Source: Patellaria atrata CBS 101060 (Eukaryota). From it: 64,000 nt of DNA. This document shows, in pieces, positions 14,875 through 61,708 of this stretch; positions within the stretch are counted from its first letter, which is position 1; every line of letters begins with the position of its first letter. A program made the position numbers and the translations under genes. The notes under the pieces were generated by a model. It did no database searches. It saw nothing but the letters and a program-made list of their open reading frames with translations, and was not told the origin of the DNA. The stretch is taken from positions 186,001 to 250,000 of the forward strand of contig MU006114.1 of assembly GCA_010093705.1 (NCBI GenBank), given 5' to 3'.

Positions 14875-17800
14875 ATGATAACCCTTCGCTGGCTTTCACG
14901 AATTGAAGCCCTGCTTTTCCTTACATCGTTTCAGTCGCTACACGTTCAGGGCAGTCCTGCAGTTAATGTGGCTCTGAAAGCTTCTTTTAACTCTGCTCCT
15001 TTTTTAGTTGAACTTTTGTAAGATCACCGGACGCCTTTATTCAGCGGGAATCTAATGTTCTATAGAGAAACAGCGGCAGACGAAAACTCCACATCCTACT
15101 TCCCCTTGCTAGACCGAATCGCGGACGGGTATTTCAAGCAGACAACAGATCGCGAGCTATACGACTCCTTTTTACGGCTATTGCAGGACGACGGCCATAT
15201 CACCGACCCTAATGCTCTCTCATCCTTCGAATTAGCACTCTCCCTCCGGACCGCCGCACCCAGAATAGAAGCCCACTATCAGTTTTATAATACATCCGTC
15301 GAGCCATCGCTCCCTAGGGAAGGGGTAGAATGTGAAACATGGATAGAATTTGGTGGGAAGCAGTACTGTACACCTGTACTGAGTGAAGAGAAGGGGGAGG
15401 TAAAAAATCATATGTAGGTTTATATATATTTGTTTGAATACGGCATTAGTTAACTAGTGGTCTAGAGACCATGTTTTACCGTTCGATAGAATCCTCGGAG
15501 ATTCTGCTAATCCCATATCTTCCATTTTATATACCGACATAACGTCACCGGAATTCAGTAAATTCCATAAAACAGTCATCAGTACCGCAAAAGGGGGTGT
15601 AACATCGTATCGCATACGACATAAACCTCCCAAGTCATTCAATGGTCAGTCTGTAACAGTCAATGGGTATGGTGTCGAGCTTGCTTTGAAGAGAACGGAC
15701 TATATTGTCATAGATGATCGACAAGACGAAAATGCGGTTACAGAAGCGGTGAAGCCTCCAGAGGCAACTCTAGGAGATGAAGAAATTGCAGATCTAAAGC
15801 CTCTTTCTCAATCAGAGCTTTTGGAACTAGGCGTAAAAGCAGCCAGTTTTGTCTTGAATAACCCTGATCCAATGGATACGCTACTCAAGCTCTCCCAGGA
15901 TTTTCCTAAACACTCTCATGCTGTTAGTGCACATAATATCTCCGCTGATTTTCTTGCCGAGCATCGTGCAAATCGAGCTCTTATTGTTCCAGCAGGTTAC
16001 AACGTCCTTTGGGTCAATGGATTGCAAATCAGTCCTCGCGAGATCGATGCGTTTTCCCTTCTGGAACGTCTAAGGCGGGAAAGAAAGTTGGTAGGCGGCG
16101 TGCAAGGACTGGGTCTATCTGGTCGACAAGCTATTAATGTCCTATCTCACAAAGCTATTACTGAAGTACAATCAAGCGACGACCCTCAACGCTATGATTT
16201 TAGGGATGAGATTGAGGGTGGTAATGTCATACTATGGATGAATAATATTGAGAAGGACAAGAGATATCAAGATTGGCCGGAAACCTTGAATGCGGTAAGT
16301 AGAATACAATTCAACGATGACCCGTGGTTTAACGAAGATATAGCTTCTTCAACGGACATTTCCAGGGCAGTTACCATCAATTCGAAAAGATATACACAAT
16401 GCCGTGATGCCAGTTGACTTCACCAATATGAGGGATATCTCGATTGTGGTTGAGACTCTTCAAAACTTCGTTCGGCGCAAAGTACCGATTCGGTTCGGGC
16501 TTGTGCCAATTACTGATAGTACTGAGGCGACTGAACAAGCTCGACTTATCTATCACCTCCTAGATACCTATGGTCTAGGCGCTGTTATGGATTACCTTGA
16601 GCAAGTAAGTAGTTTTCACGTAATCTTCCCGAAGCTGGATATGTTGTTAATGTTACTAGTCGATATCTAACAAGCCGAGAACTTCTCCACACAGAGAGCA
16701 TTTTGAATCCGCAATTGGCCGTGCTAAGCTCCGGAAAGACGCCACCGCACGCTCATTTCAAGAGGTTCTTAAGTTAGAAGAACTCGAGGCTAGGATCGCC
16801 TCTGCAAAGAAATATCTAAACCGGCTCGGTGCTGATACTAAAAATGGTCCATTTTTCATGAATGGAATTGCTATACCACGAGATGATGATTGGATGCAAA
16901 ACATGAGTGATAGGCTCAGAATTGACCTGCAGACGATCCAACGTGGCGTGTTCGAGGAATTATTCGAAGAAGATACCTGGCTACCACAATACTTCCTTTT
17001 CCAAGCTTCAACCCGACGGAATCCCCTTGTGATCCCGGAAAATGAGAAAACTATCAAGGTAATTGATATGGCTCATATTCATGCGGAACACACACAGGCA
17101 TTTGATGGGTTACCGAGTGTTACAATAAATAGCGACGAGAAGGACAAATGGGCACACCTACTTGTCATAGCGGATTTTGATTCCAAACATGGGTTGGACC
17201 TTCTTACTGCAGCTAAAGAATTCCGCAAGGAACATGATGGTGTTCAGTTAATTTTACTACATAGCGGCACTCCAGCGCAAGAGGAGGCTACGTCAGCTCG
17301 ACTGTTCAGTATCGGGCGGCATGCATATGTGGAAAGTCTTGATGACCTGACAAAACCAGCAGATGGTAGTAGTCTCACTGCTGCGTTCAAACATTGGACG
17401 CTTAGTAAACCGCTGGTCAAAGCCCTTGGATTTGAACCCGGACAGGCTGGTCTTATCTTAAATGGAAGAGCTGTAGGACCAATTCCACCAACTCAAGGGT
17501 TTTCCAAGGATGATTTCGATACCCTTCTCTCATACGAAATAAAGAGACGCATCCAACCAGCAATCACTGCTGCTAAGGATTCTGGGTTGGATGATAAGAT
17601 TACAGATCCCTTCACCGCCGCTAAACTATCCTCACTCATTGCCCTCTCTATGGTATCAGATGTTCCAGAGGGAATCTTTGAGTCAACTCCAACCACAAGG
17701 ACAGACATTTTCAAAATGTGGAATTCCACTTATACGGCCATCGAGGTAGGAGACTATGATACAGCAGTCATACAGCTAGTTGCATCTGTTGATCCTTCGT

Positions 17801-19569
17801 CCGAAGCTGCCCAACGTTGGCTTCCGATATTGAAAGTGCTCTCTGAGCTAAATGGAGTTCACTTAACTTTATACCTTAATCCCAGAGAGAGGCTAGAAGA
17901 GTTGCCTGTGAAGCGCTTCTACCGCTATATTATGGAGTCGAAACCCAAATTCGCAGAGGACGGTTCATTAAAAGGCCTTGCAGCACGGTTTAAAGGTTTA
18001 CCTGCGGAGGCTCTGCTTACTATGGGAATGGATGTACCTCCTTCCTGGTTGGTTGCTCCACAGGTCTCAGTCCATGATCTAGACAACATCAAAATCAGCT
18101 CTCTAAAGACTGATTCGAATATTGATGCAGTTTACGAGCTTGAGCACATTTTGATCGAGGGACACTCGCGTGACAGCGGCGCCCAAGGAAGCCCCCCTCG
18201 AGGAGCTCAGGTTGTTCTCTCCACGGAGAAGAATCCTCATGTTGCTGATACCATCATCATGGCCAATCTTGGATATCTACAGTTCAAGGCAAATCCTGGG
18301 TTCTTCAGGATTGAACTCGAGAAAGGCCGTAGCCGAGATATCTTTAGCCTTGACAGTGCAGGAACCCAAGGGTATAACCCGGTGCCCGGTGATGAGAATA
18401 CAGAGATAGCTCTGATGAGCTTTCAAGGCGTTACGCTATATCCTCGCCTTTCACGTAAACCAGGAATGGAAGATGAAGACGTTCTAGATATACCAGAAAC
18501 TGTAGTCGACAACCTCGCAGCTAAAGGTGCCAAGCTAGCAGATACCCTACTAGCTAAAGTAGGTCTGAAAGAAGTCAATACTGGTAAATATGTCTCCCAA
18601 GCGCAGAGTTTCTTATCGCGCTTCAAATCTCGGACCGGAATCACTGATCTTATACCAGCATCTTCTAGTCAAGCTGATATTAACATCTTTTCGGTTGCAA
18701 GCGGACATCTTTATGAGCGAATGTTGAATATCATGATGCTCAGCGTTATGAAGCACACTAACCACACCGTCAAATTCTGGTTCATTGAGCAATTCCTCTC
18801 ACCCAGCTTTAAAGAATTCCTCCCCACCATGGCCGCCGAGTACAACTTCCAATATGAAATGGTGACCTACAAATGGCCGCACTGGCTCCGGGCGCAAAAG
18901 GAGAAGCAAAGGGAAATCTGGGGCTACAAGATCCTCTTCCTCGACGTGCTCTTCCCCCTCAACCTCGACAAAGTCATCTTCGTCGACGCCGACCAAATCG
19001 TCCGCACCGATATGTACGAGCTCGTGCAACACGACCTCCAAGGCGCGCCCTACGGCTTCACCCCCATGTGCGACTCCCGCACCGAGATGGAAGGCTTCCG
19101 TTTCTGGAAACAAGGATACTGGAAAAACTTCCTGCGCGGCCTTCCCTACCATATCTCCGCCCTCTACGTTGTCGACCTCGTGCGCTTCCGGCAAATAGCG
19201 GCTGGTGACCGACTGCGGCAGCAGTACCACCAGCTCTCCGCCGACCCGGCCAGTCTGAGCAACTTGGACCAGGACCTCCCGAATAACATGCAGATGCAGC
19301 TCCCGATCCATAGTTTGCCGCAGGAGTGGCTGTGGTGCGAGACATGGTGTTCGGACGAGAGCTTGGGCGCCGCCAAGACGATCGATCTGTGCAATAATCC
19401 GATGACGAAGGAGCCCAAGTTGGATAGGGCGAGGAGGCAGGTGCCGGAGTGGACAAGGTACGATGAGGAGATTGCGGCGTTGGCGAGACGGGTTAGGGGC
19501 GTGAAGAGTGAGGTCGTGACGAAAGGGGAACGGGGGCTACATGAGCTGCCGAGGAGGGATGAGTTGTAA
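14875..19569 (+). CDS. KRE5: UDP-glucose:glycoprotein glucosyltransferase, GT24 (exons 14875-15017, 15066-15413, 15466-16294, 16344-16604, 16660-19569)
   Basis: Signal peptide; GYGVELALKRTDYIVIDDR; catalytic domain INIFSVASGHLYER, IFVDAD, DQDLPNN, WCETWC; ends in RDEL ER-retention signal. Confidence 0.97.
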
Positions 19570-19985: not shown

Positions 19986-20085
19986 NNNNNNNNNNNNNNN
20001 NNNNNNNNNNNNNNNNNNNNNNNNNNNNNNNNNNNNNNNNNNNNNNNNNNNNNNNNNNNNNNNNNNNNNNNNNNNNNNNNNNNNN
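19986..20085. other. Assembly gap (100 N)
   Basis: Run of N after a poly-T tract. Confidence 1.
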
Positions 20086-21173
20086 TGGTTGTTTGTAGAT
20101 TTCGGTTATTGCGTTGTCCTTTGTGATATCTCCTCAGTGCTCTGTCTCTAGATTAACGTTGAGGAACGTGGAAGGCTATTTGGCCGAACGGGATCAAAAT
20201 ACACGCAAAGATCCCAATCTCTATTTTATGATCTAGGGGAGTGTTAGGCTTGATACAGGCTTTCTTGGATTCAATGCGCTGCTTAGCATTCACATCATTC
20301 CCCAGTGTCAATTCAACTAGAGCAGGTAACTAGGAAAGGGTTGGCCTTCAAGCTTAAGCCCCTAGGCCTGACGATGGTGGGAGAAGGGGTTTCGCCTTCT
20401 TTGTAAGTGCGTTCTCTTCATCGCTTGTTTTACGTGTTTTCCGCAGCGATACAAAATAGAGGTATATTCCATGTCTTAACCTAGGTCATTCGATATTACG
20501 TCGTCCTGGGATAGAGCTCTGATAAGTCCTGTTTTGGCAATAAAGGTGGCTTTTGCGAGTTTGAGCAGCATGGGCAAATCTAAAAGGTTAGTGGCGGACT
20601 ATGGAATTAAGTGGCTCATGGAGACCTTCATGAAATTGACTGCCTGAGATACAAAGTTCACTCTAAGCTGAGGCATTGATAACACGGAGTAGCGAAACGG
20701 AAAACATCAAATATTGACGCAAAACCAATCAGGGAGCTCTGTTGATCATGATGGAGTTATTAAACATTGTTAAATGAAACAAAAGCTGGGAATCGTTGTT
20801 ATTGAAGGTTGGAAATAAGACCACGCTGAGATGCATTGACGTCGCCTACCGTAACCACTAATAATACACCACGTACAGGATAATGCCTCGTGTAAACCAT
20901 TCATGGTACAAAATAGGTACCTCTTGACCAAGGAATCGAACCATAAGCCATGACCGGGTATCAACGTAGTGCCATGACAGCGGAAATAGAAATCTAGGGT
21001 CTCTATGCAATGACAAAACCTAGCCCAACGTGACGATGAGGAACCTTTCTAAAGTTGGATGAGAAACCAAGGAAAATGACAGAAAGTACATCAGATGCTC
21101 CCGCTCTTCCCATTCAAAAAAAAATGACGTTGACTAAAACTATGTGGTAGCTAAAGCTTGGCGAATGGTCTGA

Positions 21174-22103
21174 TCAGCCCTCGCCAGACCCCGAATCTAA
21201 ATCAATTGCCATAGGATCCGATACCCTCCAAAAGGGTAGTGCGTCCAGTGTAAAGTCCTCAATATCGGAAGGAAGGGAGGGTGGCCCTCTGTCAACACCA
21301 CTCTCAGGTTCTGAGACCTCGACGATGTGTGGATGTGGCATGTCCTCAAAGATCAACGACGAGCGATCTCCAGGGCCTCTAACCCGCCGCCTAAGTCTTC
21401 TTGCGCTTGAGCCAACATCGTGAGCATCCAAAGCCTCCACATCCTCCATATCAGAGTCACTACCAACACTTTGACTATGGCTACGCTTGAAAACTCCAGC
21501 ACTCCAACGTTTCTTTTTTGCTCTGTAGCGTCGTGTTTGTTCGTCACTCTCAGAATCCGCTTCGCAGTTCAATTGCTGAAAGCTATCAACAATCCCCGTG
21601 TGGCTACCGCTGTCTCTTTTGGTTGCATTTTCACTCCTTGCGTCTTCGAATTGGTCCGGTCTGACAACCTCCGTTTCGCTATCATTCTCAGCATCACTCT
21701 CAGTAATCTCTTCAATAGTGAAGTCAGCGTCATCAGCCATACGAGACTGCACAGAGTGATACATGGAAGCTGGTAACTCCTGGGAGCTTTTCTCATCTTC
21801 TGAATCTTCCGGAAGCGATAGCCGCTCATAATCCGAGGGAGTCGATGGTCGAGATTGAGTTTCAGTTTTCTCAGTTTCTTGTGGCCTTGTATAGTTGAAT
21901 GATGGACCCTGGCCGATAGGTGCGATATGCTCCAACGGGGGTGAATGCGCCGGACCTATGAATCCCATGCGCTTGTAATTTGGTGATGTATGACTAGCCA
22001 TCGAAGGAAAGCGTGAATGCGTGCTATTTACTGGTGTTGCGGGAGGAGAAGTAGGTCGATTGGTTGGTGGGTTGAAAGCTTGCGACTGACTCGACCCCTC
22101 CAT
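21174..22103 (-). CDS. Uncharacterised 309-aa Ser/acidic-rich protein, single exon
   Basis: ATG-initiated ORF with basic clusters (RRYRAKKKRWS, ARRLRRRVRGP) resembling nuclear localisation signals. Confidence 0.75.
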   Translation of the reverse strand: MEGSSQSQAFNPPTNRPTSPPATPVNSTHSRFPSMASHTSPNYKRMGFIGPAHSPPLEHIAPIGQGPSFNYTRPQETEKTETQSRPSTPSDYERLSLPEDSEDEKSSQELPASMYHSVQSRMADDADFTIEEITESDAENDSETEVVRPDQFEDARSENATKRDSGSHTGIVDSFQQLNCEADSESDEQTRRYRAKKKRWSAGVFKRSHSQSVGSDSDMEDVEALDAHDVGSSARRLRRRVRGPGDRSSLIFEDMPHPHIVEVSEPESGVDRGPPSLPSDIEDFTLDALPFWRVSDPMAIDLDSGSGEG

Positions 22104-23391
22104 AGTTATGACAGTTGACGAGAGGAGACTCCTACAATATTTCGGAGGTTTTTCTAGAGATGAAAGAAAGACAAAATGAAGAAGTCAAATACTCTAAGGG
22201 ACCGGAATCCGGTAGAGTCTAGGTTTGCGTAATATGACCTTTGTGTACAGTTTCATTTTTTTGGAGATAAAAGGACCTTTCGATTGCTATAGTTCTGAGC
22301 AATCGATATGTGAGGCGGATAGCGGGGGACCCTTTTTCAAAAGTCGAACCCTGCAAATGGCTTGGCTTATCGAGAAAAAGGGAGAAAAAAATATAGGTTC
22401 AGTATGGCAGCAATGCAGAAATACAAGTCAACAATGAGCAAAGATTGCCCAGTGAGTGGCGGATGGAGCGCAGGCAGAACAAGTACCTACTCCGTATTTT
22501 GGCTGAGTTGTGGAAAAGCACAAGTAAAAATATGCGACGAGCGCGGGAGTACTGATGATGTGTTGTTCACGTTCCCTTGCGTGCAGGATGCGCTCTTTTG
22601 CATGGGCACCTGTAGGTCACTGAATGGGCTGAATCGATCAGAATGATTCGAATGATGCTATTCAAGCTGTTTCAGGCTTGACCTTTGAATGATTTGGCCC
22701 GTCGGCGTTGGACAGGCGTTCCTTGACCCGAAGTATCGACCCAAGTCATGATATGTGTCGGCCATCAATTTGTGTGGGTGCTGTCGCTAATAGCATTGTG
22801 CATCGAGCAATCTCGCGCTGCGTCCTCAATCGTCCGACTTCAGGCCAATGACAATATCCAACTTGATTAGATCCATCACGGTCGAGCGCAGCCTGCAGAA
22901 GATCAGCAATTGGAAGATCTGGAAGCGCGGAGTGATTGAAGAGAATGAAAAGGCATGAAAAGGGTAGCCTACATGTAACGGCGGCTTGGAGGACGGAACT
23001 GGTGACTGGGAAGGACTTCCGTAGGTTGGTGGTTAGGGATCGATCACGTGCATTGAAAAGGCCCTGGTAACCCTGAGGTGGGAAACGGCCGTAGAGCAAA
23101 CATATCAAACATAGCAAACACTGTTTTGTCTTGACCTTAGTCATCAATCGCTTGATCACTCCCGCCAAGGAACGAAATGTGAGCTGCATCTCGCATAGGG
23201 ACACATATCAGGGTCTATTGGTGGCAGCAATCAGAAGAGATAATATTGCGGTAAAAGGGCATGAAAAAGTTTACTGCTACTTCTACCTTCGCAATTACTA
23301 TCATCCGAGTTCCCACCACACGTCTACATCTACACACTGTAGGGGTTGTTCCTTCCCATATCTGAAGCTGCGGCTTCACCCTCAATCCACC

Positions 23392-26248
23392 ATGTCCTCT
23401 CCATCTATGTTAACAAAGGTAAAGGAGCTCCCACTACTTCATTAAGGATGAAACTTTTTCTAATGCAAGCTGCGTTAAAGTTCGAGTCGAAGTCTTCCCG
23501 AGCGAAAGGCATTGCTTTTCATCCCAAGAGGTCGCCAACCCCCAATATACCCTCCCCCACTTCCTTGTGCTAGGCTGATACGCTGCTAGACCATGGATCC
23601 TCGTTTCCCTACACTCGTCCACAATCCAGTTGTGGGATTACCGCATGGGTACGCTCATAGACCGATTCGAGGAGCATGATGGACCCGTTCGAGGGATTGA
23701 TTTCCATAAAACACAGCCGCTGTTCGTCTCTGGGGGTGATGACTACAAAATAAAAGTATGGTCTTACCAGACGAGAAGATGTCTGTTCACACTGAATGGA
23801 CATCTGGATTACGTTCGTACTGTGTTCTTCCACCATGAACTACCCTGGATTCTTTCGAGTTCCGACGATCAGACAATTAGAATATGGAATTGGCAGAACA
23901 GATCTTTGAGTACGTGAAGAGGAACATGATTGTGAACGGTCCTGGGTTGCTGATAATTGCTAGTATGTACAATGACTGGCCACAATCACTACACCATGTG
24001 CGCACAATTCCACCCTAAGGAGGATCTCATCGTTTCAGCGTCGCTTGACCAGTCTGTTCGCGTGTGGGATATCTCGGGGTTACGAAAAAAGCATTCGGCT
24101 CCCACTTCAATGAGCTTCGAAGACCAAATGGCTCGTTCAAATCAAAACCAAGCAGACATGTTCGGGAACACAGATGCTGTAGTCAAGTTTGTCCTCGAGG
24201 GTCACGATAGAGGTGTTAACTGGGTCGCTTTCCACCCAACCCTACCTCTTATCGTATCCGCCGGTGATGACAGACTTGTTAAATTATGGAGGATGAGCGG
24301 TAAGTCCAAGTCTGTGCACCTCGAACACCTTAATTGACGTTTCACAGAAACCAAGGCTTGGGAAGTCGAGACATGTCGAGGTCACTTTCAAAATGCTTCC
24401 GCTTGTCTCTTCCATCCTCATCAAGATCTCATACTTTCCGTTGGTGAAGACAAAACAATTCGCGTCTGGGATCTGAATAAGCGGACCCCAGTTCAGTCGT
24501 TCAAGCGCGAAAACGACCGTTTCTGGGTGATAGCGGCACATCCTGAAATTAATCTCTTTGCTGCCGGTCACGACAATGGAGTCATGGTCTTTAAACTTGA
24601 GCGGGAAAGGCCTGCATCTACCGTTCATCAAAATCAATTGTTTTACATCACAAAAGAAAAGCATGTACGGTCCTACGATTTCACAAAGAACGTCGAATCA
24701 CCCTCGATGCTATCTCTCAAGAAGTTAGGTTCTCCGTGGTTACCTCCTAGAACGCTATCTTATAACCCTACGGAGAGATCTATTCTTGTGACCTCCCCGG
24801 CAGACGGAGGCATTTACGAATTAATCAGCCTACCTCGAGATGCGAGTGGTGCGATTGAGCCGACGGATACTAAACGAGGTTCTGGTAATTCTGCGGTATT
24901 TGTCTCTCGCAACAGATTCGCAGTGTTTACCCAAAGTAACCAGCAGATCGATATCAAAGATCTGGCAAACTCTACCACCGAGACTATCAAACCCCCACAT
25001 GGCACAACTGACATATACTTTGGAGGTACGGGGTGTCTTCTTCTTATCACAGCTACGCAAGTGGTCCTATACGATATCCAGCAAAAGAAGAATCTTGCCG
25101 AGCTTGCGGTGAATGGGGTTAAGTATGTAGTTTGGTCGTCAGACGGATCACACGCGGCCCTCCTCAGTAAACATAATGTTACGATTGTTACGAAGTCATT
25201 GGAACAGGTTAGCACATTACACGAAACCATCCGGATCAAGAGTGCGACATGGGACGACGCAGGCATTCTACTCTATTCGACACTCAATCACATCAAATAT
25301 ACTCTAATGAATGGGTAAGTCTAATCAATCGGCCCCTGAAGGATATGCTGACCGTGCTACAGTGATAATGGAATAGTTCGTACTCTTGAACATACGGTCT
25401 ATCTCGTAAAAGTAAAGGGTCGTAATGTGTACTGCTTAGACCGCGCTGCTAAACCGAAAATTCTCACTATCGATCCTACAGAGTATCGCTTCAAACTGGC
25501 GCTTGTCAAGAGGAATTATGACGAGATGCTCAACATCATAAAGAACTCAAGTTTGGTTGGGCAGAGCATCATCTCCTATCTACAAAAGAAAGGATATCCA
25601 GAAATTGCTTTGCAATTCGTTCAGGATCCGCAGGCTCGTTTTGAGCTTGCCATTGAATGCGGAAACCTAGATGTTGCAGTTGAGATGGCCAAACAGCTCG
25701 ACCGCCCAAAACTTTGGACGCGTCTAAGCCAAGAAGCACTCGCTCATGGAAATCACCAAATTGTCGAAATGACTTACCAAAAGTTACGGAATTTCGACAA
25801 ACTATCATTCCTTTATCTGGCAACTGGGGATAGAGAGAAACTTACACGGATGGCCAAAATTGCAGAGCATCGCGGGGATATGACTTCCCGCTTCCAGAAC
25901 TCACTTTATCTCGGAGATGTGGAGAATCGAATCGAAATGTTCAAAGAAATTGATTTATATCCACTTGCGTACGCGACAGCTAAATCACAAGGACTCCAGG
26001 AGAAAGCTCAAGAGATCCTAGAAGCCACCGGACTCAGCGAAGAGGAAATAACCCTTCCGGAGTTGGGCACCCCCCTATCGCCTCCGAAACCCGTCGTACC
26101 TACCTATAAGGCAAATTGGCCTGTCAAGGGTACCTCCTCATCTGTTCTAGAGAAAATACTACTTGGTGAAGGAGCTGAGGAGGAAGATGGTGAAGAGGCA
26201 AACGGAGAAGATGAAGAAGATCTTATTGACGCCGATGCTTCAGATTAA
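23392..26248 (+). CDS. COP1: Coatomer subunit alpha, C-terminally truncated, about 861 aa (exons 23392-23418, 23481-23530, 23590-23909, 23964-24299, 24348-25314, 25363-26248)
   Basis: [23 protein letters not shown]...[23 protein letters not shown]40 propellers; alpha-solenoid [15 protein letters not shown] in the acidic linker after NWPVK. Confidence 0.95.
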
Positions 26249-26890
26249 ACGCGCGAATTCTTCCGTGGTTGAGGATATGTCTGAGTTCATTCATGTGAAT
26301 TGGAGGCCTGTCTCATCTGGCGTTGCAGTCAGGTATGTATCAAGTCTCCATTTAGGACTTGACAAAAGTTAGATGCGAAAATGTAGCATTGGTGTAATAG
26401 TGAGCGATATGAAGGTACGAATTGCACGAACAGTTGCGTCAATGTACCGTTTTGTCTCTTAGTTGATGGGTGTGGATGGCATTCTAGAAAGATACAATGA
26501 ATAAGTACTCAGGATACAGAATATCGAAATGTCACTTCACTTACTTTAGTGCTGTGCAAATGCTGTTCGATACTCATACCCCTATTGAAAGTTGCGGAGT
26601 AATTTCCTGAGGCGGGGTCCGGGGAAAAGTTCGTGCTTCCCATTTACCCCTTGGCATTTCGCCCCCAAAATTAGGCCGCCTGTTCCGTCTGTACATACAC
26701 CATACTTGTAGCTACGATTCAGCCTTGTAGACGGATCTGGGGTAGAACAGGTCGATCCTTCAGTTACTTGTGTGTACTCTTGTACAGCCGTATTCTCTGT
26801 AGATATAAGCAATACTATATTTGGCTTTTTGTGCTCCAACCTTCTAGTTTCCAGTTGAAGCTGTGTGTTTAGGAGCTGACGAGCAGAACC

Positions 26891-29549
26891 ATGGGCACAC
26901 CGCCCAAAAACAAGAGAACGAAATCCGCCTCAGTTGCGAAACCGCCATCAATAAATGTTGAGGATGTCAGCAACATCGGAGGAAGACCACCTAGCGGGAC
27001 AGTTGGTGAGTATAATGCCCACAGCTCTCTGGATCACGGGCAACATTATCGCTAACTCCTCATTAGAAGCTACGTTACCAGACGTGACGCAACTATCCGA
27101 AGAGCATAGATTCGATCACAGAAATAAGACTGACACATGGAAGCACCATCACAGGAAACAAAGTCCTGGTGTTGAATGGCGTGAGAAATGGACACAAGAG
27201 AGCTGGAAGCATGGAAGAGTGTTGTTGATCGATTATGTTGGTAAAGGTGTGGCCCAAACATGATGGTACCGGTTCGTCTGCAGACTAACAGTGCATTTCT
27301 AGATGATACACATGATGGCAGGCGAAGGATTCAAGCTCAAGAATTCCATGATGTAGATGGTTTGAGGAGATACTATAATAATGTAAGCGAGCCTTGCGGA
27401 ATGCTAGAATTGACGATAGCCCATGCGTTAACTGTTCATCAAGACAGATTTATCACGAAAGGCTGCTCTACGCTTAATGTAAGGATATCCCATAAAATTA
27501 TCATTGAGATGTAATTAGCATTGATGATCCTCTCACAGACATGTACAAAATGCCTCATGGGCAACCCGGTTTCTTCTCCGTAAATTTAACATTGATCACC
27601 ATAATGATCTCGTAGGAACAACATTTGGACGATGGGCTCGTTACGAAAAGCCGCAACGAAGAGCTGGGAAACCGGTCCTCAACGGCAAGGCTTTCCGCAC
27701 ACAACGTGATCCATGGCGAGGCATAAGTCGTTGCGCTTTTGGACTTGATTATCTGAAGTCCTATGATGCCCACAAAACCGCACTTACACCAAGCGACATT
27801 GAAGTCAAGATGATGGAGCTGAATGGGTATGATAATATGGATAATCCGAGTTATAAGTACGATGTCTTCGTCCAGCGTCTTTCCGTGTACATACAGAGGA
27901 GTGAAGGGGAGACCTATTCTCCGACTGATCCGAATATCATAAGTCCTTATAGTACCGAAGAGAATCAGGAGGAGTACAGAGCGATGCAGGAGCGTCATGG
28001 GTCCGATGCTGAGGACGTCTGGTTTAGTGGATATTCGCCGCACCTGGACGAATTAGACAACGGAAACACCATTATCATCTTTGAACACTCTCAATCAGGT
28101 TCAGCTATAGATACTTTGATTGGTGCGAGACAAGAAATCGAAAACCGATGGCGAAGACTCACGTTTTATCTACCGAAGGACGATGCTCTGAGCGAAGACT
28201 GGCTGGTTGATGAGTCTATGGATCTCATCTTAAAGGACATTTTCAAAAGGCTCTCTCATGCGTGGGAGAAATACCTTGACCGGTGCGAGACTCATGTCGG
28301 GATCTTGGAGGACAAAATCTACGAAAACCCAGCAGACGAGTCTCGCGCTCCCGAACTATGGCAAAACGGCAACCTCTGGCTCAAAGTCGAGAAACTAGTC
28401 TACATTCATATTGACGTGGCCAAAGAAATAAAAAACGAAATCAAAGCTCTTGTCAACGACGACAGCCAAGACGAATGGCTCGAGAACACCGTCGAGGACT
28501 TCGAAAAGCTCGCCAACCTCGTGCAAGAAGACCTCGTCAAGCCGACCGCAAACCTCTCCGACCTCATGTACAAGTCGGTTGAGATCCGCGACAGCCGCCA
28601 TTCCATCGCTCTGGGACTGAGTATGTGGCGTCTCTCTTGGATCACCTTCATCTTCCTACCGCTGACGTTCATGGTCGGCTTCTTTGGCATGAACGTCAGC
28701 ACTTTCTCCGATGAGTCCCTACCGAGCATAAAATGGTTCTTCATCGCCGCAATTCCCTTCGCCCTCGTCATCGTCGTCGGATGGTATTTCGTCAAACACT
28801 CCCTCGCGAGGAATAAGCAGTCTCCTCTTCGCAGAGGCCTGTACGAGAACCTCTTTCACGACCTCGCCGCCGACCATCCCTCTATGTGGTCCCGCGCCGG
28901 GCCCCGCGAGACAGTCGTCCCCGAAGGTATCGTCTCTAGCATCAAGTGGCGCCTCATCAGCATGTGGTACCAACCCGACAAGACCATCGTCTCCCGCGGC
29001 TACGACCCAGGGAACGACGAGCTCGGCGTTTGGGCCCGCACCAAGCGTTTCTTCGTGCGCAAGTGGTTGAGCGAAATCCGCATCACGCCCGCTTCCTCCG
29101 CAGCTGCAGCGGCAGATATCACGGAGACTGGCGACGTGCACTCTCTCGATCAGGACTTGGGAGCCGTCACGGAACTGTTGAGCGTGGCGACGCAGATAGG
29201 GGTCGGGTCGTTGGAACCGAGTGCTGCAACGGTCAGCACGCCGCCTACGGGTTCACCGAACAGGAACCGGAGCCGCAATAGGCCGAGAAACAGAGATGTC
29301 AGTCCCCGCCGTAGTCGTGCGCGGGGAAGCTCTGATGCGCTTGCGAGACCGGGGAGTGCGCATTCGAGCGGTGGTGTTATGGTTGAGGAGGAGAGTGATG
29401 ACTCGGATGAGGGCAGCGAGCCTGAAGACGCGATGAGGAGTGAGAGACGGAGGGATGAGAGGAGGAGGGAGAGCGTGCAGAGACCGTTGGTCACAGAACG
29501 GTTGAGTGTGCCTATCTTTCCGGGGCGAGCCAGTGAGCACACACCTTGA
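26891..29549 (+). CDS. CorA-like Mg2+ transporter family protein (exons approx. 26891-27005, 27067-27246, 27303-27382, 27444-27478, 27539-29549)
   Basis: Two C-terminal TM helices with ITFIFLPLTFMVGFFGMN (GMN signature); four introns give a continuous frame. The exon 2 donor could be 27241 or 27247. Confidence 0.88.
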
Positions 29550-30607
29550 ACGCTCACAACGGGTGTCCTTCTATGATGGTTGGCTTGAAGGTCAGGGTAG
29601 AGGTGTAGATGGCAGATTTTATTACATTTACGATGGTATGTATATTTTCAGGTTCTATTATATATTTAGCGCTGACCCGAGGACTACGGGCGTCAGACCT
29701 CGGTGTCGGTGATATAGTTGTATAGCATAGTGGTATATAGTAGAATAGCTGTTCCGCTTTGCATAGGTAGATAATCATCGAGACCATCAGAAAAGCTCGA
29801 AACCCCATGAAGACTTCTCATATCTTCTTCCCGCCAACCCCGTCACACCCCTAACATAAACACAACACGCAGACATGGAGACCACCCGCGCCGTGAAGTA
29901 GACCGTGAAGCAGAGACAAGAATCCAGGACCAACTTGCCCTCTCCCCCATTCACCCAAAAAATAAGTACATCCCCACCCCACATCGACCTCATAACCAAC
30001 AATTCCAACCTCCGGGTTTTCGTAGAAATTTGCGACTAAGTAATCGATTCCCAGTTAAATTGGTCTCCTCTAGTATCCTGAGTACGATCCCGCGTTGTCG
30101 GGAATTTGCATCCCAGGCTACTCGCTCAGGCGGGGGAACCATTAAATTCCCCCCTCCTAAAAAAAAAAGGGGGGGAGCCGCGATTTCTTTTTTTTAATTC
30201 CTCTTTCTGAGGGTTATGGGAGGTTATTGTGGTACATAGTGGTCGTGAGCATTTTCTGGAGTGAGCCTTAGCCGACGCGGGGGCGATGCTCTATAAATAG
30301 GCTCGCTAGTCCTAAAGCGGAAACCTGCATGGATCAGAATTTCGTCGAACGTCTGCGCGAAAATCAGAGGTCTCAACAACCAAAATAAAAGTAAGTTTTT
30401 TAATTGCTTCCACAACTGTTAATGAAATTCTGAAAGTTGGAGTCGGATAAGAACAATATTTAGAGCATATCTACAATTTTATCAAGAAGTTAACAGCGTT
30501 GGTGGTATAGTAAATAGACTGAGAGGGATTCTATATATAAAATATGCCAAGATAAATGCTCGTTGTGGTGTGATTGGTTGGTTCTACAGCGGACTCTAGA
30601 ACCAGAG

Positions 30608-31163
30608 CGTGGAACAATTTCTAATGCTCCCCCGTCGACCAAAAGCAGTTTCAATCACTATAGCAGTTTTAATTACTATAGCAGTTTTAAATAGCACCTT
30701 AGAAGCGTCTTGTAAGGTTTAGCCGCTAAATCCCGTCGGCCCTTCGGTCTGAAAATGCTGAGTTTTGATTATTTCAAAGCGCTGAGTATAATACTAAAAC
30801 GAAGCATCTCAGAAAACGAGCTTTCTATCTAGAGAAAGCCATCTATTTGGAGAAGAAATATATTCAGAGAATATATCTATACGACAGGTGATAGTAAATT
30901 CGGTGTATCATTATTAAGGCTAAAAAACGGCGTGAAGGCGTCTTTAATATCCACCAACCTAGGCTGCTACTAAATCGTTAAAAGTTATTAACACTAGATA
31001 GAAGCCATAGTCTAAACCTATTTGCGGTGCTCGGTGATACCAAAGCACCGATTGAGTCGCTGAATCTTATAAAACAGTGCTAAGTGTGCATTTGAAACTG
31101 CTGTAGTAGATTGTCGTAGTTGAAACTTTTTTGATCGACGGGAAGCATTAGAAACAGTTCCTC
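30608..31163. mobile_element. Non-autonomous DNA transposon (MITE), 556 bp, 8-bp TSD (hAT-like)
   Basis: Imperfect TIRs GGAACAATTTCTAATGCTCCCCCGTCGACCAAAAGCAGTTTCAA vs reverse-complement GGAACTGTTTCTAATGCTTCCCGTCGATCAAAAAAGTTTCAA; direct repeat AACCAGAG at 30600-30607 and 31164-31171; no ORF in the track. Confidence 0.85.
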
Positions 31164-31534
31164 AACCAGAGTTAAATACTTTCTACTTTACTTGATATGT
31201 TTCCGGGAAGGTCCTTGACTGTACTTTGAGTAAGAAACACCACCACGGATAGAACCCACCTTAGAAAAAGATATTCGATACGGCTTGCTTGTGCGTGCAC
31301 TTTTCCTAGGTAGTAACGCTTTATTCACACCACAACATGCGAGTACGGGGGATTACGAGACACCACCAGGAGCTGCAAAAGTCGCGGTCTACCAAAGGTC
31401 GAGGACGAACCTATGCAATATATTTTTCATTTCTATGGTTTCTTAGACCAGCCTTTACCCACTACTCAGAGCAGCAATAGCGATCCCTCCTTTCAATCTC
31501 CTCGGTTCCCCCAGTTTCCAATCTTCCCGCTTTT

Positions 31535-32386
31535 CTACGCCGTCCATGTAACCGCAGTGGTGCCCGTGGTTGTACCGTTCCCCTGGATGACGTTGATCGC
31601 ATTCACCAACGCCGGCCACCATCTCGCCGCCATCTTCGTATCACCCGCATCGTTGGGATGCACGCCATCCCTCAGGTCGGTCTGTGCATTATATCCAGTG
31701 TACTGGTCGACGACCCAGATGGGGGAGTTGGTCTGGTTGAGCCCTTGAGCCCATGGGATGATGGCCTTATTCAGGTTCTGGATCTGGGTGTTGTAGTTGC
31801 CGATTTGGATTGGGATAATTTGGGCGACCTGGAAGGGTTGTTAGGTTGAAGGGTGCAGTGAAGGATTGTGTGCAGTATAGAGCGTGCATCGGAAAGGGGA
31901 GAATAAAAGAGACTTAGGCGCAGAAAGGATTTGGCTTACGATGATCTTCATGTTGGGATTCGAGGCTCTCATTTGACCCACAAGCTTTGTGAAAGCAGTA
32001 ATAATGTCATTAACGGGCTTATTCTGCTGCACGATGTCGTTGGTACCCAAATGCATGGTGATTAGGTCCGCAGGGTTGCGTTGCAACCAACCGACGAGCT
32101 GGTTCTGGTTGGCGATGTTGATGGCAAGGAAGCCCGAGTGACCTTCATTGTCCTTGTCGTAGTTGGGGATTCTGCAGCCGGCACCTTGGGCGTTGCCGTT
32201 GGTGCCGGAGCCGACGAAGTCGATATTGGTGTAGCCAGCTTGTTGGAGCTGTTGCCAGATGAGACCTCGCCAACAGACGATTTCGGTGATAGAGTCGCCG
32301 AAGGGCATATAACGGATCTTTGAGGTTTGTGCAATGACGGAAGAGATGAGGAGGGCGAGACCACCGAGGCCGCTGAGCTTGACCAT
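31535..32386 (-). CDS. Secreted SGNH/GDSL esterase, CE3-like (exons 32386-31940, 31828-31535)
   Basis: Signal peptide MVKLSGLGGLALLISSVIA; blocks PFGDSIT, EGHSG, HLGTND, DGVHPN. Confidence 0.93.
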
Positions 32387-32746
32387 TTTGAAAGATTGGA
32401 AACGATGAACAGAAAAGTAGAAACGATTGTATGTACAGAAACTTACAGCGACTAGATAACTAGTTTGAGGGTAGATAAAGAAATATATATACTTAGTTAT
32501 TCCCACCAAGAAATCTTCTCATAAAGATTGAGCATCACCAGTTCAATGATGTATACCATCATAGTTTCCCCGCATTTGTTAAAGGAAACAATGAAGAGGC
32601 GGCCCGGAATACGCGATCGTGCGGGAACATCAAAGAATTAACTGGAAATGAGTAGGCTTGATGGAAAAGTCTGGGGAATATTCATAGTGGATAGGTCAGA
32701 CTTGTCGACCGATGTCTGATTGAAACGCGTAAAAGCGACATAGTAA

Positions 32747-32800
32747 CTAGATACGGTACCCAGATACGGGACCTAGATACGGGACCTAGATACGGGACCT
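32747..32800 (+). repeat. 13-bp tandem repeat x4 (CTAGATACGGGAC)
   Basis: CTAGATACGGTAC CCAGATACGGGAC CTAGATACGGGAC CTAGATACGGGAC. Confidence 0.9.
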
Positions 32801-35139
32801 GGTGAGATGATGTTCCAATCATTCTTCTCGCCGGTACCGGGAGATTTTGGTGAACATGGTATGGTACCTGGTGAGAGAAGATCATAGCCAGGTGAATAGA
32901 ATTTCTCGTTTTGCAGCCAGGTGAGCAATAGATTCCTTGAGGTAAGGTAGCTCTTCATTGGAGATATATGAATATTCAATCTATTCGGCACTTGAATGTC
33001 TGATCCATGTTCCTGAACCGGGTAATTCGTGATGCGGATTTCTTGGCATCTTCCAGAATCCGTTGTACAGATGGTGGCTGCCGCTGTCAAAATCAAAATA
33101 TGGGAGGTCGTTACGTCTTCCAGATGTGACTGGGTTATTCTCCACGATTGGTAGTGTCAACGGTATTGACCGGGATAAGAGGCTTAAGAAATTAGCGAAA
33201 AGGGAAGGGGAACAACCAGGGGTCGAAGATATTAACAAAAGGTCCTGCTACGGACAAAAGGCGACCCCTCAGTTTAATTAAAAGGCATTGAATCAAAACT
33301 CAAAATGAAAAAAAAGCAAGACAAAGACTTTTCAAAATTCAACAACGAACGGGAACCTAAGGATTAATAAATAATATCACTACTGTGACTTGTAGTGGAA
33401 GACATGCGAATACGGATACCACGTGAATCTTCTGCTTATATAAATAAGGACCAAAAACGAAGTGAACAGACATAACATGACTGATAAAATATGTAAGAAC
33501 AAAAATTGTAGTGCAAGCATTGTCCACCTGTTTGAAGATATCTCAAAGTCAGTCTAGTGTGCTAAATAATCCGAAAAAATAATATCTGGGTAACCTAGGT
33601 AACTAGCTGTATTATTATTGTTGCATCCCAAGATCCAGCATATTTCGGGTTGAGATAAATTAACCTTCGAAGAAAGCGGATTGTTCAAAAGTAATGAAGA
33701 ATAATCAAAGTAGAAGCGTCTCAGCCCGGGAGACAAGTCGGTAATATTCGATCCCTTAGTCCGCTCGTGGAACGCCCCACACTTATAGGTGATCCATATA
33801 TACAGGCAGCAGTAGTGTGCAAAGGACTGAGGTACTTAGTCAATCTCGCAGTGTTGAATTTCCCTAGCAGCACCTCTGTTAAGTGAAAAATGAGAGGGTA
33901 GTGGAAGGGAGTAGATAAGAGAATACTGTATCGACCTTTTTGGGCCTCACGACAGTACATATTGCATAGTCTCCTTCCACGTCCACTACATGTAATGCAA
34001 TTATACCGCTAAGAATGCACGCACTGTGTTGTTAGTAGAGGGCACACCCCTAGAAGAAGAGGTCAAGAGCAATCTCTCTGGGGTGGTTCCTTCGTTGCGA
34101 GAACTTTCGAGAGGAAGGCACTTGCTCGACTATTAAGTCCCTTAGTTGTAGCGAAGATCGCGTGCGTTATACTGAAGAGTTATGATTTGACCGTAGAATG
34201 TGTGTCTAGTGGTGATCACCTCGATATAGAGGGTCCTGAGAGAATTCGATCCCGCCTATCATATGATTTTTCCGAAAGTTGCATTTCCCGACGCATAGAG
34301 TCTGTATATCCGGGAAAGTAGAATGAGAATCTTCAACATAGTTGAATCTCCGGCATACCCGATGGACTTTATCTCTTCACTGATGTTTTGTGATGTTGCG
34401 AATGCCCTAGGAGGATACATACCCTGGGGATAGGGGATGTTAGGAATATCTAGAATGATTTCGAGATCTCTTTTAATCCTCGTTGGTGTGCAGTTGACAC
34501 AAGTAGTAAGTAGGGGCATTTTGTAAGATTCTATCATATGGACATTTCCGAAATAGATCTAGAGGCTTTCCCGTAATGAAAGGGTTCACAGACGTAGAGT
34601 ATGGTTGAGGGACAACAGCACAGTGAGGGCTGAGAGTGAGTCCTCGTCAAACACGGTAGTAATGAACTAAAAGTGAGCGGATCTTCAGTTTCTATATTGA
34701 GGCCAGTAAGATTTGATTATCAACGTACTGGAGTTGAACTTCAGAGATACTTTTAATAAGTTTGGTGCAGAAATCCTGGAGACGTTCACATGCGTGCCAA
34801 GCTGCACACGTCCTAGAAAGCTTAGCTCTCATCCCAAGGGTTATGTAACTCTCCCTGAGACACCAACACTTGCGCATAACCTTCATACTAATCTCTGTCA
34901 GGACCTACACGGAAAGATTACTATAGCAACTTAGACGTTGACATCATCAAGCTCTTCTACCAATACCAGGAACTGGAGCTTGAAAGAGGAGGGAAAACGA
35001 CGAGTATTTGAACAAAGTCCTGGACGCGCGTTACAATCCTAACAGCTTTAGATCCTTTCATACTGTCGTGCGACTTCAAACCTTTGCGATAGGGCCTCAC
35101 ATACGTCACAACTAAAAACATATCAAAGACATCGCGAAC

Positions 35140-35606
35140 ATGGGTGCTCTTGGCAACATCGTTCCACTGGTGATTCTACTCGGGTTCACTGCATTTGGAG
35201 CATACATTGGAATACAGCTTTACGTATGGGTGAACGAGCTTGCCGACCGCGGCATAAAGAAGATGGAAAAGAAGAATGTCGTCTTCTCCAAGGACGGGAT
35301 GAAGGTTGGCGTTAAGGAGGTGCGCGACGAGGATATCGCAGATAAGACACAAAGGTACCCCTACCGAGCGATCATGGTTAAGTGGTGGTATTGTGCTGAT
35401 GTTCGATGATTGTAGTTTGTTTGTAAAAGCATGGTCTTATACTTCGTTTCCCGCATATAAGAGCAGATTGGGATGGAAAACTACAGCTGATGATGCGCCA
35501 GCGTACGTCCCCTTAGAAGACTAAAGGATAAGGCACTTATATTGACAAAGACAGGGTACCTTCATCGAAGGGACAAGCGGCGTTGAATAGGAATCGGACG
35601 ATGTAG
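35140..35606 (+). CDS. Small single-pass membrane protein of unknown function (exons 35140-35354, 35416-35502, 35555-35606)
   Basis: N-terminal hydrophobic helix IVPLVILLGFTAFGAYIGIQLY, then KMEKKNVVFSKDGMKVGVK; two canonical introns keep the frame. Confidence 0.8.
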
Positions 35607-35846: not shown

Positions 35847-38301
35847 TTACCTATCGGCAACAATAGCTCTTGCTCTTTGTCGTTCGCTCTTATCAAGTAC
35901 CCAAGCCATCCCACTTTCTCCTCTACTTTCTTCCTCCTCTATCTCCTCCCACTCCTCATCGTCCATATTAATTATCAGCGTCATCTGAGTGCACTTCGCG
36001 AATGCATCTCTTAAGCCATACTTACCACCTGCCACCGCTGCGTTAACGATTCCTGCGATATCACGTTCCAGTCTTACAGCTCCAAGCTCGTTGACCTTTC
36101 CATAGAAACCCCAGATTCTCTTTTCCATGGCCTTACTCAGGTACGATACCGCGGCCGTGAGCAAGCGATCGAAGTTTCGATCAGTTAGAATCCGCTTAAT
36201 TGGCCGTGTGAGTGCACCCCAACCGCGATCAAACCTGCTTTTCACAAGATCGTCTGCGAGATTATCATCGATCCCATCTTCATCGCCATCTCTAGTGAGA
36301 GCTACGATATCATCTGAAGTTAGAGCGTAGTCAATGTCGCGGAAGGTCTCAGTCAATATGGGCCTGATGCGAGGTTTCATGACTTGGTGGAATGTGACTG
36401 AAACGCTTTCATTTAGGAGCTCTATTGTTTTGGACTCGAAGCCGTGGAGCATGGATTTGAGTGCATTTTCGACGAATGTAGCATCGTGAGCGAAAGGAAA
36501 GAGGTCTGCTAATTGGGTTGATGATGCTGATTCCGTTGGCTGGTCCGGTTGACCAAGCTGAGATTCGATGATGCGTTTAATATAGTCGTTTGAGACGTCT
36601 AGATTGTTCATAAGGACCAAAAAGGCGATAATCTTGTCCTCGGGGGGTAGGGCGCCTTGAATTGCGGCTTTTGGGTAACTCTCATCCCTCATCTTTCGTT
36701 GAATCATACCAACAAAGTCGGAGCCAAGGACTCGGCCAATTGCTGGCACAACGCTAGCGATAACTAGACGTTGAGAGGTTGCGATGGATCGTTGAAGAAT
36801 TTGATTGACAATGTACATCACATCATCCACTGAGGAGGTGATAAAAGGGGAATTAGCTCCCAAAGGCTTATTAGGATTTAGTGTTAAGTCTGATGGTGGT
36901 TCATCCAGCTGGAAGGCTTTCTCCACCGATCGGCGGAAGAAGAAGGTAGTCATGATATTGAAAGGTTCGATAAGGTGACTTGATATTTTTTTCATGAGCG
37001 TGCTGTTAGAAAGATACGTAGGCATAATCAATGGTGAAGTATCGCCATCTACGGAACCGTCTACAGAAAGTGGCTGCTAACATTAGCGTTTGTTATTGGA
37101 CTGTATCAGGTGATACCCTTACCGTGTTCTTAGAGGCAAGAAAGCGAGTATACAGCGCCCATCTCCCTAACATTATGGCCTCCTCTCCAAGGAGACCATC
37201 GACTTCTTTCATATCCACGCCCTCGTCCTCATTTGGCTGGCCTGCCGAGCCATCCTGCTTGAACGGAGAACCGGTCCTCTGAGTACCTCCAGCACCCCTT
37301 GGAGTTGAAAGAAAACTCTGGACTAGAAATGAAAACGCATATGACTTGATGTCAGTCAATTTCCTATCCACCGTTCGCTCATCGTACCATGTGTCAAGCA
37401 CGATACCACCTTGAACGTCAGCTTCAATTTGAAGCCGCTCTATGACCTTGACCATAGTGCCTGTGCCATAGTGATGTTCTACTAATGGTTGATGACCATC
37501 AACAATTTGTGCAATGTGCTCGAAGAGCTTAGTGAGTGCATTTGCATAGAAGAGGCCTTCCCTGGTTCCTCCGGCGCTTGAAAGGTTTGTTCGTGCTCGA
37601 GATGCTACACCGTGACAGACATAACGTCCATATGCATCAAGACCTACATCTGATCTTCCGATCAAGGGAAATAGTTTGAAGAACCTTGTCACTCGAGAAC
37701 CGTCTGCCTCTTTAGCAGCTTTTTCGAACTCTCGAAGAAATAGACCACATAGAGATTCTGCTGCCGTGTCTAAGGTTACCCTTGGAGGATCCGGGACCTC
37801 TGCAGTCGGTACAATCTCTTCAGAAAAGCTGCTATTGATGACCTCTGCTGGTATTTTCGAAGCACGACCAAGGTAACTTGCTGCGGTTTCCCAGTCTTGC
37901 GGTCCACCCATAGAGCCGTGAACGCCTAATACGCAAGCTTTTAACTCGGCGACCTGTTCAACGACATCTAAAGTAGCTTTTACATTGGACTGTTCTAGGT
38001 CTAGTCTCTTCACGGCGCGAGAGAGTCTTCTAGCAGTCGAGGCAGCATCAGATAGCATGCCATTGCTGATAGCTCGTGTAGTCACAAGCTGAGATCCTAG
38101 GTGTGCACGCAGAAGATCCAGTCGTCCAAGTTCACGAGAGAGATCTTTTTGAGAAGCTATCAAAGCATCCAGTCGATCTGTCACTGCGGCCTCCTGGCGG
38201 TTGAGATGAGCGAGGGACCGTTGTATTTCCGCCACGGAGGTGGCATTGTATATATCGGGACCTGCATGATTGTTTGCCTCATGGATCAAATGGTTCTCCA
38301 T
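35847..38301 (-). CDS. COG4: Conserved oligomeric Golgi complex subunit 4 (exons 38301-37123, 37073 or 37076-35847)
   Basis: RVTRFFKLFPLIG, FFFRRSVEKAFQLDE, ITSSVDDVMYIV, NELGAVRLERDI motifs. Confidence 0.93.
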
Positions 38302-39300
38302 GCTCCATTATGGCCTTTAGCACGATATACAGTACCAGATTGAATTTTACAGAGCGGCGATGTTGTCGTGGGCGAAGTTCTCGATTAGGTGAAGTGTGGC
38401 CGTCAATTTGGCTATCGCTGCTCTTTGCGTCTTTTCGGCTGATAGTTGCCCTGGTGTGTTCTGGCTTGGCTGATGTCTTGCGCATGGCTCCCCTTTTGGC
38501 CCCACGGAAGCCTGGATTACCAGGTTTGGCACGTCTGGCAGAGGTCGCATGGGAACATGATGGGACAAAAACCAAACATCAACTTCCGCACCTGCGAAAC
38601 ACCTATTGACTCGTATCCATACTGAAGAAATTACAACAAGCGCCCAGCTCCGGCTTTTACTATTCTCTCAATCATTTCGATCTTTTCCCAAATTCCAGTA
38701 TACCATCCCAAGGGACGCACAGCGGCACAGTAAGTTACCACCTTCCCGCTCCACTCTACTGTAAGCTGCATCCAAGCTGCACTTCGCCTTCTAGACGCTC
38801 CATTTCAAGCCCCCGAACACAATTCGAATACTCTCTACAGTCCCGATTAACATTAGATAGATATAACATCCTTACCCGAGTTCTCAATTACGACGACTCA
38901 CGAACCGGGACTCACAATTGTTCACAAGCATACTCCACATTGACTGCACTGCCCTTTTCGTACGCCATCCTACACGAGTAGCATTAGTTTGAGCCGTCTC
39001 AGACACTTTGTTCAGCGGCACGTTCTACACATACGACAACGAGCCACACCCAACACCGCAGGGTCCTTCGAGTTCGCTGAGTCTTCAGAATATCTGTCGA
39101 TACTGCTGCATCTCTAGAACTCATGCCGCCGCCACGGATACGATATCCTTAGACCCTCTCCTTTCCTCCTTGACCCCCACTCGTTCCTCACAGTCTTATG
39201 CGTTTGCTGGTATTAGTGAATAATTATAGTACCTCACTTGGTATTGAAAGAGACGGAGGGAGAATCAGTTCTGTAGTGAGCAGGGAGCCCGGTTGTAAAC

Positions 39301-61608: not shown

Positions 61609-61708
61609 NNNNNNNNNNNNNNNNNNNNNNNNNNNNNNNNNNNNNNNNNNNNNNNNNNNNNNNNNNNNNNNNNNNNNNNNNNNNNNNNNNNNNNNNNNNN
61701 NNNNNNNN
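61609..61708. other. Assembly gap (100 N)
   Basis: Run of N after a poly-T tract. Confidence 1.

Follow-up and report, generated by a model that had tools for sequence, protein, structure and literature searches.

In alpha-COP, a subunit of the COPI coat, the C-terminal domain (CTD) is described as binding epsilon-COP, and its helices form a singleton tryptophan (Trp) motif site that is important for the self-association of alpha-COP and for tethering at the endoplasmic reticulum (ER) (PMC10866661). In coat linkages I and IV, alpha-epsilon are described as forming the central contacts, and the same article regards epsilon-COP as not essential in yeast (PMC5482573). In Aspergillus nidulans, deleting the gene for epsilon-COP (aneA) is reported to leave vegetative growth unchanged and to lower fruiting-body formation (PMC4397377). 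A viable mutant of Hansenula (Ogataea) polymorpha, ret1-27, produces an alpha-COP that is missing over 300 residues at its C-terminus; this strain needs external Ca2+, as it does not grow on Ca2+-depleted medium, and is altered in secretion and glycosylation (PMC4696657). Here we describe an alpha-COP gene of Patellaria atrata CBS 101060, a filamentous ascomycete, that is located in a stretch of 64,000 nt (assembly GCA_010093705.1, contig MU006114.1, positions 186,001 to 250,000, forward strand). This whole stretch is referred to as the window, and all coordinates are those of the window.

The 861-codon alpha-COP gene really does end ~350 residues early in the sequenced DNA. With a little more than an even chance, in our judgement, a break in the linker, specific to the lineage or to the strain, has left a working alpha-COP without a CTD, probably the only alpha-COP of the organism, and a coat without anchored epsilon-COP, the loss being either tolerated or compensated.

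The alpha-COP gene and its missing C-terminal part

The gene consists of six exons separated by five introns, all of which have GT-AG borders and are 48-62 nt in length, and the open reading frame (ORF) of the last exon extends over 25427..26248. The features of the gene and of the spacer behind it are listed here, the relatives being represented by 80 alpha-COP loci taken from metagenome contigs.

23392-26248, forward strand: alpha-COP gene of six exons, with 861 codons followed by a TAA stop codon (26246-26248)
23392-23418, 23481-23530, 23590-23909, 23964-24299, 24348-25314 and 25363-26248, forward strand: the six exons of the alpha-COP gene
25364..26173, forward strand: retained alpha-solenoid, through which alpha-COP pairs with beta'-COP (PF23953; solved chains 5a1u_C, 9qpq_D and 3mkq_B)
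26165..26245, forward strand: stub of the acidic linker, starting with GEGAEEED and aligning with the start of the linker in orthologues
26186..26250, forward strand: zone in which homology ends, including the TAA codon, as judged by blastn to the 80 loci and by protein similarity
26249..26890, no strand assigned: spacer of 642 nt with no trace of the CTD by tblastn, hidden Markov model (HMM), blastn or Pfam searches

The deduced product shares 87.4% identity with residues 1-856 of a full-length orthologue (P0017, 1215 aa). The N-terminal WD40 beta-propeller is present on exons 3 and 4 (Pfam WD40, E values of 1.8e-20 and 3.8e-19), and the second beta-propeller (B-prop_COPA_B_2nd, PF04053; E value of 2.6e-68, profile positions 1-220 of 248) and the alpha-solenoid (TPR_COPA_B; E value of 7.1e-26) are present as well. 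Among solved alpha-COP structures, chains 5a1u_C and 9qpq_D are matched by the last exon at residues 557-826. In a third alpha-COP chain, 3mkq_B, which has 177 residues and whose entry (3mkq) also contains a beta'-COP chain, the exon spans positions 1-175. The closest named matches to this exon are from Dothideomycetes and allied fungi (78-83% identity). Among longer or near-length proteins in the protein database, none matched it at 100%, the highest identity being 84% among full-length matches and 92% over part of the query, so that the proteins of this organism, including any CTD encoded by it, are not represented there. The initial annotation had described an otherwise intact, highly conserved alpha-COP gene that stops at ~861 aa, and the six-exon model bears this out.

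Full-length orthologues are 1170-1231 residues in length. Past a shared "EEDL", ~15 acidic residues of variable sequence lead to a conserved Trp-acidic motif, behind which lie another conserved acidic stretch and the CTD; in orthologue P0005, the CTD is formed by residues 885-1229 (matching the solved CTD chains 6tzt_B, 3mkr_B, and 3mv2_A). The Trp-acidic motif and the layout that follows it were found in all 10 orthologue tails inspected; the ORF in the window stops before the motif. No Pfam match to COPI_C (PF06957) was obtained on the alpha-COP exons, and no CTD was found in the 64-kb window either by tblastn with three full-length orthologues (E<=10) or by an HMM built from 68 orthologue tails (408 profile positions) and run on six frames with all filters removed (--max; E<=1000). 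Matches of this HMM are confined to profile positions 1-50 of 408, at 26102-26245 of the window. Nucleotide homology to the 80 loci ends at or before 26185, with no blastn match past 26200, and protein similarity to orthologues reaches somewhat further, to 26239-26245. The entire CTD is thus missing from the gene, as had been proposed from the initial reading of the sequence, and from the rest of the window. Because the gene lacks two defining features of its orthologues, the linker motif and COPI_C, it is classified as a truncated variant of alpha-COP and not as a canonical member.

The gene that follows begins 642 bp after the stop codon, and it had been claimed that nothing between the two could hold the missing part. 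This is correct, since the longest ORFs in the spacer encode only 69 aa (forward strand) and 85 aa (reverse strand), and neither the spacer ORFs nor the first exons of the next gene contain a Pfam family. The spacer also contains no repeats and no tRNA genes. The only match in Rfam, to an archaeal snoRNA, was rejected because its score, 22.8 bits, is below the family threshold of 50. A shifted-frame peptide, VVEDMSEFIHVN, does exist after the stop codon and had been taken as a hint of decay of the linker. Its Smith-Waterman score against the orthologue linker is 32, compared with 26.4 +/- 4.1 for shuffled sequences, 36 of 300 of which reach 32, and it was not reported by the six-frame search with the orthologue-tail HMM. 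The likeness is therefore at chance level, and this peptide was discarded as a decayed remnant of the linker.

The alpha-COP locus in relatives

Comparison with the 80 loci of relatives involves the following genes of the window.

21174..22103, reverse strand: upstream neighbour gene, with a homologue at relatives' alpha-COP loci
26891..29549, forward strand: gene of the CorA-like Mg2+ transporter family (Pfam CorA, E value of 4.7e-15)
35140..35409, forward strand: gene for a small predicted membrane protein, detected by tblastn at relatives' loci and matching no Pfam family
15022-19566, forward strand: UDP-glucose:glycoprotein glucosyltransferase (UGGT) gene
35847-38307, reverse strand: gene for conserved oligomeric Golgi complex subunit 4 (COG4), with two long exons and with N, middle, and C domains matching Pfam

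A homologue of the upstream neighbour occupies the corresponding position in 16 of the 80 loci, ~1.4 kb upstream of alpha-COP and with its orientation unchanged, and a reverse search identified it in 19 loci. Judged by this marker, the locus is the ancestral alpha-COP locus. In a tree based on the two long exons (594 columns), which includes the window and 46 loci (the other 34 were omitted as these exons were interrupted or incomplete), the window nests among the relatives; its end branch, 0.09, was not flagged as long and falls within the range of sister lineages (0.17 for L027, for example). The number of nonsynonymous substitutions per site (dN) between the window and the relatives is 0.08-0.13; synonymous sites are saturated, and the corresponding synonymous value (dS) is not computable by NG86. 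Synteny, tree, and dN together indicate that the gene is an alpha-COP orthologue that has been under constraint for most of its history.

The CTD directly follows the solenoid in all 60 loci with at least 1600 nt of room behind it. If CTDs cut by a contig end are included, it is present in 76 of the 80 loci, and the remaining four have 211 nt of room or less. Of the 80 loci, 36 extend for at least 5 kb past the solenoid. The genes located downstream of the break in the window are absent from all 80 loci with one exception, the small predicted membrane-protein gene; the CorA-like gene, whose first ATG is at 26891, is near alpha-COP in none of them. In four more distant loci (L030, L031, L047, and L051), full-length alpha-COP is immediately followed by a homologue of the membrane-protein gene, suggesting that the ~8.9 kb between the two genes in the window might be an inserted block that has replaced the CTD. 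The gene after alpha-COP varies among the relatives, however, and includes genes for PapZ_C, LCAT, Rpb2, MFS, class I tRNA synthetase, and HET proteins. Downstream synteny therefore cannot separate a deletion plus insertion from an inversion or a translocation. A similar variability was observed for the UGGT block, which is near alpha-COP in five to six loci, being inverted and on the upstream side in L034, L048, L061, and L062 and on the downstream side in L003. Its varying order and orientation indicate that gene order is locally shuffled in these fungi. COG4, 10 kb away from alpha-COP, is also a Golgi trafficking gene and shows no sign of being affected.

Explanations for the missing domain

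A false join near 26250 that conceals the true continuation of the gene is very unlikely. The scaffold does contain two gaps of 100 N each, but these are the only N runs in the window (19986-20085 and 61609-61708) and are separated from the truncation site, which itself contains no repeat, by ~6 kb on the upstream side and ~35 kb on the downstream side. Contigs from two public runs of one sample (X1 and X2) were compared with the window over 21000-33000, and both runs contain all sampled words of this region. A single X1 contig of 41,598 nt covers the whole region with 0 differences at a word depth of 307, and an X2 contig of 22,081 nt covers 24245-33000 with 0 differences at a word depth of 435; over the region compared, the contigs of neither run showed a joint, a loose end, an indel, or a differing letter. 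Read continuity at the truncation, which the initial annotation had proposed to check, is thus supported by the contigs of both runs. The X1 contig spans nearly exactly the interval between the two N gaps. In X2, a minor path with a single-letter variant is present at 24184-24274, in exon 4 and intron 4, with a depth of 4-32 compared with ~390-435 for the main path; either a low-frequency polymorphism or an error could account for it. The X2 contigs are broken near 24214-24244 by this variant. Since a depth of 4-32 was sufficient to break X2 and the truncation site is unbroken, no comparable alternative path is present at the latter. This makes it less likely that a second allele, or a near-identical copy, runs into a CTD. 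No repeat of at least 25 nt was found in the window except for a 13-nt tandem at 32747-32798, where three and a half copies of the unit lie in a gene-poor stretch. A transposon or repeat at the break was considered and rejected, as there is no repeat, no tRNA gene, and no composition resembling that caused by repeat-induced point mutation (RIP) at this site.

The same contigs bear on the idea that the locus is a partial copy, made redundant by a second, full-length alpha-COP gene elsewhere in the genome. The presence of alpha-COP with a CTD in every relative checked would fit such an arrangement, but neither X1 nor X2 contains a branch to a near-identical copy or allele, the truncated locus retains the ancestral upstream neighbour, neither the frame nor the introns are disrupted, the branch is of normal length, and the composition is not RIP-like. 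The suggestion of a truncated paralogue in the initial annotation is weakened by these data, in particular by the upstream synteny, the branch length, and the lack of an alternative path in the read graph, and we consider a partial copy decidedly improbable. Gene fission, in which the CTD-coding part has moved elsewhere and is expressed as a protein of its own, still able to bind epsilon-COP and to enter the coat with no covalent connection, also appears rather unlikely, even though several observations are in its favour. The break is in the linker that separates folded domains, the sole place where both halves would stay foldable, CTD constructs have been solved alone (chains 3mkr_B, 3mv2_A, and 6tzt_B), and the reshuffled gene order near alpha-COP among the relatives indicates that rearrangements are common here. 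The 3' fragment, however, would need a new promoter and a new start codon, and no stand-alone CTD gene is present beside alpha-COP in any of the 80 loci. When residues 880-1223 of orthologue P0072 were searched against shorter proteins, the CTD-only proteins among the best 120 of 1007 matches were mostly exon calls on short contigs. The matches include a stand-alone COPI_C model of 338 aa from Verticillium dahliae (P0248), on a contig of 3.19 Mb, which could be either a split annotation or a real split. No paper pairing 'alpha-COP' with 'gene fission' was found among the open-access articles searched.

We therefore return to the reading that we favour, in which the truncated gene continues to serve as alpha-COP. 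According to this reading, the break would have occurred inside the acidic linker at the ancestral locus, by deletion and replacement or at the breakpoint of a rearrangement, with the reading frame running into the TAA codon a few codons past the last homologous residues. The resulting 861-residue protein, which probably works and is probably the only copy, retains both beta-propellers, with their binding of cargo motifs, and the alpha-solenoid for pairing with beta'-COP, and has lost the Trp motif of the linker together with the CTD of ~350 residues. Without the CTD, epsilon-COP would not be held in the usual way, the alpha-epsilon contacts between coat triads would not be formed, and Trp motifs, among them the one in the Dsl1 tether, would find no site on alpha-COP. 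A coat of this kind is predicted to be viable, with costs in trafficking or in ion homeostasis, by likeness to laboratory mutants. In its Golgi-to-ER coat, the organism may thus do without the part responsible for holding epsilon-COP, although the CTD could lie elsewhere in the genome.

Several points weigh against this reading. The search for the CTD covered the 64-kb window, and the rest of the genome could contain the CTD as a gene of its own or another full-length alpha-COP. The truncation is seen in the DNA, and the two runs that agree with the assembly come from one sample, which is probably the source of the assembly itself, so that their agreement is not independent support. If the break is recent, a normal branch and a low dN are silent on selection since it occurred, and the nearest relatives are too distant to date the break because dS is saturated. 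In addition, all relatives open to examination retain the CTD, which is termed essential for the integrity of COPI (PMC10866661), so its loss should be costly.

Comparison with known coat systems

The truncation of alpha-COP is confirmed and is real in the DNA. Viability without the CTD or without epsilon-COP is already known from laboratory mutants; a natural alpha-COP that lacks the CTD would demonstrate that loss of this module can also occur in nature and would provide a natural background in which compensating changes in delta-COP, in Dsl1, or in the handling of Ca2+ and Mn2+ could be found. If the truncated protein is the sole alpha-COP, ER tethering would have to proceed with no contribution from the alpha-COP site; if the CTD is separately encoded, the importance of the covalent link could be tested cleanly in a natural setting. 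No report of natural alpha-COP fission, CTD loss, or epsilon-COP loss was found among the open-access articles searched, subscription journals lying outside the scope of this search.

Orthology of the gene in the window to canonical Ret1/COPA (~1170-1231 aa) is indicated by the 87% identity, the introns, the tree, and the upstream synteny, and the two propellers and the solenoid are alike. The canonical proteins, however, have the Trp motif in the linker and COPI_C, both of which are missing from the product in the window, and their CTD region has been solved together with epsilon-COP. In its architecture, with two beta-propellers, an alpha-solenoid, and no CTD, the product instead resembles beta'-COP (~814-905 aa in solved chains). 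The possibility that the gene encodes beta'-COP itself was rejected, since the last exon matches beta'-COP chains with an E value of 1e-10 and alpha-COP chains with one of 6e-90. We tentatively propose, at somewhat less than an even chance, that this free-living filamentous ascomycete has a naturally cut, beta'-COP-like core as its sole alpha-COP and hence a natural COPI coat of a six-subunit type.

A protein of comparable length, the 872-aa 'putative coatomer subunit alpha' of Sclerotinia borealis F-4128 (P0092), is encoded on a contig of 304,675 nt and also ends in the linker without PF06957. It is just 80% identical to the last exon in the window and therefore belongs to a different organism. 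This protein may be the product of a split gene model; no CTD-only protein of S. borealis was found among the best 120 of the 1007 short matches.

Strains in which epsilon-COP is deleted (yeast sec28 and A. nidulans aneA) are viable, and the effect expected on the coat is similar to that proposed here, namely a coatomer without epsilon-COP. These strains, however, retain the CTD of alpha-COP and its Trp-motif site, whereas the alpha-COP in the window lacks the CTD itself. The nearest precedent is ret1-27, in which, as in the window, the propellers and the solenoid are retained and the C-terminal part is gone. The two cases differ in that ret1-27 is a laboratory allele of a budding yeast, whereas the gene described here was found in the sequenced DNA of a filamentous ascomycete.

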